A stretch of 64,000 nucleotides of DNA, from positions 2,304,001-2,368,000 of the forward strand of contig NZ_JAQNDL010000003.1 of the NCBI RefSeq assembly GCF_028368995.1. The letters run 5' to 3'. A model generated the notes under the pieces. That model searched no databases. It saw only the letters and a program-made list of their open reading frames with translations, and was not told the origin of the DNA. The first letter of the stretch is position 1. Each line of letters begins with the position of its first letter. This DNA comes from Nannocystis bainbridge. GTDB lineage: Bacteria; Myxococcota_A; Polyangia; Nannocystales; Nannocystaceae. Below are positions 11,131 to 11,491 of the stretch, piece after piece. The position numbers and the translations under genes are program-made.

Positions 11131-11491
11131 CTCGCACGAGGTGAGCCCGACGCGGCGAAGCCTCCAGAACTTCGGGGAGGCCGAGGGTCCCTGGGGCTTC
11201 GAGCCCGGTAGCGAGTGTGGTCCCCCGAAGTTCGATCTCGATTTTTCTTGGATGATTGTGGGGCTGCGGACTCAAATCGGCCCCACCGCTGCCGGGTTCG
11301 TAAGCTGTCGTACCGCCGTTTCTTCCTTCGCAGGGCGAGACTTCTCGGAGGACTTCGAGAGGCCGTGGGTCCCTGGGGCAGCGAGCCCGCGCGTGAGACG
11401 AGGCCCCGAAGTTCGAGTTTGACCTCAAGAGCCCGGACAACTGCATGAGCGTCAGCCAGCTCGAATCCTACAAGGGTGGGCGGTAGGTCAA
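11131..11491 (+). ncRNA. Predicted bridge RNA: two target-binding loops (11167-11233, 11350-11414) and a donor-binding loop (11419-11491)
   Basis: Stem/internal-loop/hairpin modules whose loop sequences match the element's flanks and its circle junction; 5' end not defined. Confidence 0.75.

Follow-up and report, generated by a model that had tools for sequence, protein, structure and literature searches.

An IS110-group element of Nannocystis with two diverged target-binding loops and one donor-binding loop in its non-coding left end

The IS110-group element described here carries, in its non-coding left end, two complete target-binding loops with different guides (TBL1 and TBL2), followed by a single donor-binding loop (DBL). 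This dual-TBL architecture is real and conserved, as it is kept in all eight copies found in two Nannocystis genomes, three in the genome that harbors the analysed DNA (G000, the own genome) and five in that of the sister species N. radixulma (G038). Whether this represents a bridge RNA with a duplicated TBL that uses both loops as addresses, i.e., natural multiplexing, is a question on which we consider the chances about even, the reading being plausible and unproven. The evidence that makes it plausible that both loops direct insertion, all of it drawn from sequence comparison, consists of one insertion site, the conservation of TBL2 relative to the adjoining spacer, and the make-up of the target family.

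The window, by which we mean the whole 64-kb stretch of DNA that was analysed, contains the element between two CT cores, as found by sequence inspection. The positions of all features are listed in Table 1. The ends of the element show no inverted repeats. A contig from a soil metagenome represents the empty site, in which 1403 bases are skipped at a joint with 2 shared letters, confirming the CT core, and CT is present at both junctions in 7/7 complete copies. The element boundaries and the CT core are established. The own genome comprises about 11 Mb in 5 contigs and has three copies of the element. One of them departs from the other two, which are identical, at 4 positions, 2 in the spacer, 2 in the gene, and 0 in the loops. 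N. radixulma contains three full copies with 90-91% protein identity, an internally deleted, MITE-like copy (L013, contig C7) that retains the final third of the gene and, in full, the RNA region of the left end, and a copy that is truncated after about 190 nt of the gene (L200, contig C6). An order-wide search of 73 genomes gave matches in five, and the element lineage was present only in G000 and G038. Scans for closer relatives yielded at most 58% identity in metagenome contigs and at most 56% identity in genome contigs outside N. radixulma.

Table 1. Positions in the window of the element, its left-end modules, and the flanking target halves
Feature	Positions	Strand	Content and basis
Left target half (LT, CGGGCCC) of the occupied site	11113..11119	+	Flank reading; soil contig joins 11119 to 12523 without the element
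CT core, left copy	11120..11121	+	Flank reading; 2 letters common to both sides of the empty-site joint
IS110-group element body	11122..12522	+	1401 bp, 1403 bp with one core; left end TGTATG..., right end ...ACAACTG; three own-genome copies and empty site
TATGTT, putative -10 half of circle-junction promoter	11124..11129	+	By eye
TBL1, first and more canonical target-binding loop	11167..11233	+	Left guide (LTG) AGGGTCCCT 11184-11192, hairpin 11193-11207, right guide (RTG) AGCGAG 11210-11215; covariance model R1 46 bits, E 1e-10
Spacer between the TBLs, fast-evolving	11234..11348	+	T-run 11242-46 and TAAGCT 11301-06 inside
TBL2, second target-binding loop, adjoins DBL	11349..11414	+	LTG TGGGTCCCT 11366-11374, RTG CGTGAG 11392-11397; covariance model R1 33.8 bits, E 4e-7
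Donor-binding loop (DBL)	11419..11491	+	LDG ACAACTGC 11437-44; RDG TACAAG 11469-74
Recombinase gene, 323 aa	11535..12506	+	Pfam PF01548 7.5e-23, PF02371 8.1e-18
TTGACG, putative -35 half of circle-junction promoter	12503..12508	+	By eye; TTGAC at the same place in relatives' right ends
Left donor half (LD, ACAACTG), right end	12516..12522	+	Sequence inspection
CT core, right copy (12523-24), then right target half CGCT	12523..12528	+	Sequence inspection, flank reading

The recombinase consists of an N-terminal DEDD (RuvC-like) domain (PF01548) and a C-terminal Tnp domain (PF02371), and comparison with the PDB returned the ISCro4 and IS621 recombinase structures (E about 1e-32), with full-length similarity over residues 3-313. 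Judged by these matches, the recombinase belongs to the IS110 family. Besides these domains, the element has a long non-coding left end (413 nt from the left end to the recombinase ATG), a duplicated CT, guides that match the flanks, a DBL that matches the element ends, and a covarying TBL fold, as is typical of IS110 elements with a bridge RNA. It departs from the canonical two-loop form with exactly one TBL, in that every full left end of the lineage gives two same-strand model matches, 182 nt apart.

As shown in Table 1, the order of modules in the left end is TBL1, a variable spacer, TBL2, and DBL. The closing arms of TBL1 (11167-77 and 11223-33) are complementary at 11/11 positions, and the DBL is closed by TTGACCT (11419-25), which pairs with AGGTCAA (11485-91). 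The LDG of the DBL is identical to the right end at 12516-23, and the RDG is the reverse complement of CTTGTA at 11120-25. The DBL is kept in relatives, with one G.T wobble variant in G038. TBL1 and TBL2 form a diverged direct repeat with a spacing of 181-182 nt, with an identity of 90% over a 31-nt block and of 100% over a 13-nt block, and their local alignment spans 71 nt. For an assessment that does not draw on these elements, we used a covariance model (R1) based on 16 single-TBL relatives, with no dual-loop Nannocystis element included, in which 7/15 TBL pairs show a compensatory change. When both strands of the window were searched with R1 at E<=1, only two places were found, 11167-11232 and 11349-11414, and since these elements had no part in the model, the two loops are beyond chance. 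R1 matched both modules in 7/7 full-length left ends searched. TBL1 lies at the distance from the left end at which the relatives have their TBL, and TBL2 adjoins the DBL in the same way as the TBL of the relatives does. An Rfam search of the left end gave 5 weak matches, all far under the gathering score, and no bridge-RNA family.

When folded in isolation and compared to shuffled sequences, TBL1 (z -3.3), TBL2 (z -1.9), and the DBL (z -1.6) each formed a closing stem, an inner stem, and a hairpin. The fold of TBL2 is the weaker of the two target loops, with z -0.18 in the G038c copy, and R1 scores of 24-34 bits across copies versus 46-49 bits for TBL1. In TBL2, one pair is non-standard and the outer stem contains a 1-nt irregularity, and the G038c copy and the truncated G038 copy have two mismatches in common in the middle of this stem. 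The whole 421-nt left end folded with z -1.1 relative to shuffles, with TBL1 missing from the minimum free energy structure, which we take to say little, because such RNAs have large internal loops. Judged by the model, TBL1 and TBL2 both have the TBL fold of the single-loop relatives. The preliminary description of this DNA, which had proposed an IS110-group element with a bridge-RNA-type left end, agrees with the Pfam domains, the IS621 and ISCro4 structure matches, and the CT core. Its motifs and coordinates are all present in the sequence, its two TBL modules, each complete and with guides of its own, are recovered by R1, its single DBL is seen on sequence inspection, and its reading of the second loop as a diverged copy with the scaffold kept and a different right guide is consistent with the block identities given above. 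The covariance-model check of the left end that it had proposed finds both loops with the model of single-loop relatives, while Rfam holds no matching family.

We also considered the possibility that the left end is coding. At a G+C content of 71%, open stretches are found in every frame of this DNA, and three of these frames, searched against Pfam, matched no family, so that this possibility was rejected. A 493-aa open frame on the minus strand (window 10998-12479), antisense to the left end and the element, likewise matches no Pfam family and stays open in all four left-end variants despite indels. We read it as an effect of the 71% G+C content.

The dual layout was compared between the two species. 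Both modules are present in all five G038 copies, including the deleted and the truncated one, and a soil-metagenome variant also carries both loops, its spacer being replaced by 85 different letters. Relative to G038, substitutions amount to 3-6% in TBL1, 9.2% (6/65) in TBL2, 5-6% in the DBL, 16% at third codon positions of the recombinase gene, and 27-29% in the spacer, which in addition contains 23-24 indel columns and has lost a further ~45 nt in the truncated G038 copy. The spacer therefore evolves about three times faster than either TBL, and the difference between TBL2 and spacer is significant (Fisher test, p=0.0026). The difference between TBL2 and third codon positions is not significant (p=0.18). 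All pairs survive the six TBL2 changes that separate E0 from Ea, one of which converts a G.U to a G-C pair. Judged from these alignments, the layout has been kept in two species while the spacer decays. The guides show variants, AGCGAG or CGCGAG for the right guide of TBL1 (RTG1), TGGGTCC or AGGTTCC for the left guide of TBL2 (LTG2), and CGTGAG or CGCGAG for its right guide (RTG2), and as aligned here, guide letters differ both between the loops and between the lineages. The sister species has the same layout, with variable guide positions and the scaffold kept, which is in support of the preliminary description.

To see how rare the layout is, R1 was run over 160 loci of relatives, of which 121 had at least one match. 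Only three loci gave two same-strand matches, namely the G038 loci L014 and L075 as well as L054, and an old, diverged dual layout occurred in 0/119 TBL-matching loci outside the two Nannocystis genomes. The single-TBL relatives, from Nannocystis MAGs and Gemmatimonadales (L015, L007, L094-L096, L030, and others), share the TBL and DBL scaffold and the donor guides, and differ in having one TBL and a recombinase of 44-58% identity. In those at 54-58% recombinase identity, left end and donor loop are shared with the element analysed here and the target loop is single, and the left end TGTATGTTCC is common to the Nannocystis MAG relatives L015, L007, and L095. The left end of the Nannocystis element measures 413 nt versus about 205 nt in L015, the nearest single-loop relative.

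Two loci resembled a dual-loop element. L103 was rejected, as its two R1 matches belong to two head-to-head elements, and L054 contains a recent, perfect 87-nt duplication, the first copy of which has no closing strand. The L054 duplication (Gemmatimonadales MAG, 1248-1400) comprises the left end and the TBL to just past the right guide and is joined at CT; the sister copy L033 is single. Another duplication, perfect, in tandem, and 60 nt long, was seen in L019 and L020 (Gemmatimonadales MAG) at about 260-140 nt upstream of the recombinase gene. The duplicated segment begins exactly at the left end, and the junction directly follows the ...CCGC-CT of the left guide, which places the left end of the element next to a DNA mimic of its own target half-site. 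Since this duplication is present at two different genomic sites, the variant has moved. The sister copies L017 and L018 are without the 60-nt duplication. An origin of the Nannocystis spacer as a decayed left end, DBL, or right end, as expected for a tandem IS dimer or a self-insertion, found no support, as the local alignments were no better than those of shuffled sequences: the score was reached by 299/500 shuffles for the left end, 463/500 for the DBL, and 75/500 for the right end. For the left end of L015 against the spacer, the score was reached by 858/1000 shuffles, versus 0/1000 for the positive control, in which it was aligned to the real left end.

The guide register was checked in the relatives. 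Their left guide, the 9 letters that follow CCG, corresponds to the left flank together with CT, with 8/9 matches in L015, L007, and L095, and in L095 the single LTG difference allows a G.U pair. Their right guide, 6 letters that begin 2 nt past the hairpin, is the reverse complement of CT and the adjoining right flank, with 6/6 matches in L095 and L094. Applied to the window, this register gives AGGGTCC-CT and CT-CGCT for TBL1, and UGGGTCC-CT and CT-CACG for TBL2. The occupied site, CGGGCCC-CT-CGCT, forms 9 Watson-Crick pairs, 1 G.U pair, and 1 mismatch out of 11 with TBL1, versus 7 Watson-Crick pairs, 3 G.U pairs, and 1 mismatch with TBL2, in line with the earlier proposal that this insertion fits the first loop best. 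Over 7 complete sites, TBL1 forms 9-10 Watson-Crick pairs of 11 in 7/7, and TBL2 forms 7-10. The better loop was TBL1 at 5/7 sites and TBL2 at 1/7 (L002), with one tie (G038c). These 7 complete copies are not independent, as they come from two genomes and few lineages. The distal-most left position of TBL1 is mismatched in 7/7 sites; at the remaining positions, TBL1 pairs perfectly in 5 sites, the window copy contains one wobble, and L002 has a single mismatch, in the right guide. In 6/7 sites, the right target half is matched by RTG1 at 4/4 positions. Elements with an RTG1 reading CGCG lie at CGCG in 3/3 cases, and those with an RTG1 reading CGCT lie at CGCT in 3/4; this association is not significant (one-sided Fisher about 0.11, a hand estimate on few related copies). 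In the G038 a, b, and d copies, the left guide of TBL2 (AGGTTCC) fits the occupied sites worse than TBL1 does.

The site that favors TBL2 is L002, on contig C3 of the own genome, which reads TGGGTCC-CT-CGCG. With TBL2 it forms 10 Watson-Crick pairs and 1 U.G wobble, with 0 mismatches; TBL1 forms 9 Watson-Crick pairs there and leaves 2 mismatches, of which the right guide has one. The match of TBL2 to CGCG at this site runs through the U.G wobble. ISPpu10 is strict in its right guide and accepts any mismatch at the distal position of its left guide (10.64898/2026.03.19.712850). Taking this as a lead, insertion at L002 would be easier via TBL2. For the proposal in the preliminary description that one donor is sent to two target variants, the sites are suggestive, with one out of seven fitting TBL2 best, five fitting TBL1 best, and one tie. 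The flank class ...CT-CACG that it had predicted did not materialize, as none of the 7 sites is of this class, and its one genomic occurrence is empty.

Five of the seven site flanks belong to one repeat family. In G038, the pattern GGKTCCCTCRCK occurs 24 times, versus 7 times for the reversed control, and 22/24 of these matches lie in the repeat family, often as inverted pairs 0.7-1 kb apart. The right halves of the 24 matches read CGCG in 18 cases and CGCT in 5, indicating that the natural target pool offers each of the two right halves that the loops read. Empty family members in the own genome read CGCC (3) and CGCG (1). Judged by their sequences, the insertion sites are members or look-alikes of a repeat family with CGCT and CGCG right halves. 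The exact TBL2 target, GGGTCC-CT-CACG, is present once in the own genome, outside the repeat family, and is unoccupied; this lone occurrence (L199) is found on the minus strand of contig C3 at about 883424, some 6 kb away from the L002 copy. In the own genome, one locus (L198, contig C4, 156580-158020) consists of two ~176-bp arms, about 94% alike, around about 1.1 kb, and the inverted pairs of G038 are found at loci L174-L197. Such inverted repeat pairs may be the ends of another small mobile element. A transposase remnant inside the repeat unit was considered and found no support, as four frames matched no Pfam family. Over the whole own genome, GGGTCCCT occurs 81 times on both strands, 6/81 being the elements' own guides, versus about 940 expected from a crude base-composition estimate.

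Regarding transcription, the putative -35 half in the right end and the putative -10 half in the left end would, as judged by eye, be separated by 18 nt in an excised circle, on either side of its RE-CT-LE junction. A promoter split across the RE-LE junction is the arrangement described for IS621 and ISPpu10 (PMC11208160; 10.64898/2026.03.19.712850). A scan of the linear sequence found no promoter-like or terminator-like sites inside the left end, and thus gives no support to the idea that the T-run and TAAGCT act as terminator and promoter of separate RNAs. The T-run after TBL1 is present in all copies and begins 8 nt past the stem.

If both loops are used, the following sequence of events can be proposed. 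After excision, the promoter would be rebuilt across the RE-LE junction and would give one RNA with TBL1, TBL2, and DBL, in which each loop would bind one recombinase dimer. A synaptic complex of IS621 draws its TBL and its DBL from two different RNA molecules, and recombination in vitro also proceeds with TBL and DBL on separate RNAs (PMC11208158), so that either TBL-bound dimer could pair with the DBL-bound dimer. In CazIS110-1, a TBL-only RNA is reported to be about 10 times more abundant than the full bridge RNA and to have partial activity of its own (10.1101/2025.10.25.684509). In view of these two systems, a second TBL in cis would be mechanistically unproblematic. TBL1 (xGGGTCC-CT-CGCT, or CGCG in some G038 copies) would be the main address, and TBL2 (U-GGGTCC-CT-C[A/G]CG in the own genome, CGCG in G038) a second, partly overlapping one that would cover the other common variant of the target repeat. 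In its full form, this reading describes a natural target-loop array with two independently evolving addresses for one donor, which would insert at CT-CGCT and CT-CGCG/CACG repeat variants, the U residues at discriminating positions of the guides widening the second address by wobble. We hold this specific version tentatively, as it falls somewhat short of an even chance.

The strongest competing explanation, which we consider rather unlikely, is that only TBL1 works and that TBL2 is a passenger, the slowly decaying relic of a duplication that is kept by its youth, by its position between needed parts, or by conversion from TBL1. Such gene conversion could keep TBL2 similar to TBL1 without selection. 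That TBL1 fits 6/7 sites with at most the distal mismatch or a wobble speaks for this explanation, as do the single site in seven that prefers TBL2, the lower R1 score and weaker fold of TBL2, the two outer-stem mismatches in the G038c and truncated copies, the statistically indistinct divergence of TBL2 and third codon positions, and the recent, clearly accidental left-end duplications in the relatives L054, L019, and L020. However, a decaying passenger is difficult to reconcile with 9.2% substitutions and no broken pair between E0 and Ea when the adjoining spacer has accumulated 27-29% substitutions and several deletions, or with the presence of the layout in at least three diverged lineages (E0, G038, and the soil variant). 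The guides of TBL2 are unlike those of TBL1, so conversion does not homogenise them, and L002 would have been entered with two mismatches to TBL1, one in the right guide, where TBL2 offers none.

It is also conceivable, although improbable in our assessment, that both loops are used in different steps, e.g., that TBL1 yields an abundant TBL-only RNA for a direct-transfer step while TBL2 and DBL make up the full bridge RNA, or that one loop titrates or regulates the recombinase. By analogy, the abundant and partially active TBL-only RNA of CazIS110-1 (10.1101/2025.10.25.684509) would fit such a division, and so would the T-run behind TBL1 in all copies and the placement of TBL2, which adjoins the DBL exactly as the single TBL does in relatives. 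The scan of the left end, which gave no terminator-like or promoter-like site, and the distance of 8 nt between stem and T-run argue against it, and it leaves the difference in guides between the loops unexplained. That the second loop results from chance similarity or an assembly artefact is refuted by the R1 E-value of 4e-7 for TBL2, by the identity of both loops in the three own-genome copies, and by the presence of both in five copies of another species and in soil contigs. Weighing these arguments, the use of both loops as addresses is the reading that we prefer.

Bridge recombinases are under development as programmable tools for genome rearrangement, and the bridge RNAs in the literature searched, natural as well as engineered, have one target loop each. 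The conserved two-TBL left end shows that the scaffold tolerates an extra TBL in cis, and if the second loop is active, it would provide a ready-made design for directing one donor to two sites. Should multiplexing be true, this would be the first natural multiplexed guide layout of an RNA-guided recombinase. The layout also bears on how elements follow sequence drift in the repeats that they target, and the left-end duplications of the relatives, with a junction exactly at the left guide and DNA that mimics a target half-site, illustrate the duplication of bridge-RNA modules. In the full texts searched, no natural bridge RNA is described as having two target loops, and the text consulted of a survey that reports longer guides and deviating structures contains no tandem TBL (10.64898/2026.10.21.760802). 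A similar layout may be contained in the supplementary tables of PMC11208160 or in Fig. S12 of 10.64898/2026.10.21.760802 (86 models). The dual-TBL layout is apparently undescribed in the literature searched.

Several known systems share part of this layout. ISPpu10, an IS110-group element that targets REP sequences, likewise has a repeated palindromic genomic target and tolerates a distal left-guide mismatch and G.U pairs (10.64898/2026.03.19.712850), and differs in being described, as far as that source goes, with one TBL, versus two in the Nannocystis element. The TBL-only RNA of CazIS110-1 is comparable in being a natural extra TBL-bearing RNA beside the full bridge RNA; in the account available of that system it is a truncated form of the same single TBL, with no second diverged copy. 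In engineered split TBL/DBL guide RNAs, the TBL also acts as an independent module that pairs with the DBL of another molecule (PMC11208158; PMC13604230), yet these are laboratory constructs with one TBL per reaction, whereas the Nannocystis left end encodes two TBLs naturally. IS621 and ISCro4 have in common with the Nannocystis element a DEDD_Tnp_IS110 plus Transposase_20 recombinase that is similar over its full length, a non-coding RNA in the left end and promoter halves in the right and left ends, both of these being predictions for the Nannocystis element, the CT core, a TBL with a left guide like the top strand and a complementary right guide, and a DBL that reads the element's own ends. 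What sets the Nannocystis element apart from both is its two complete, tandem TBL modules with different guides.
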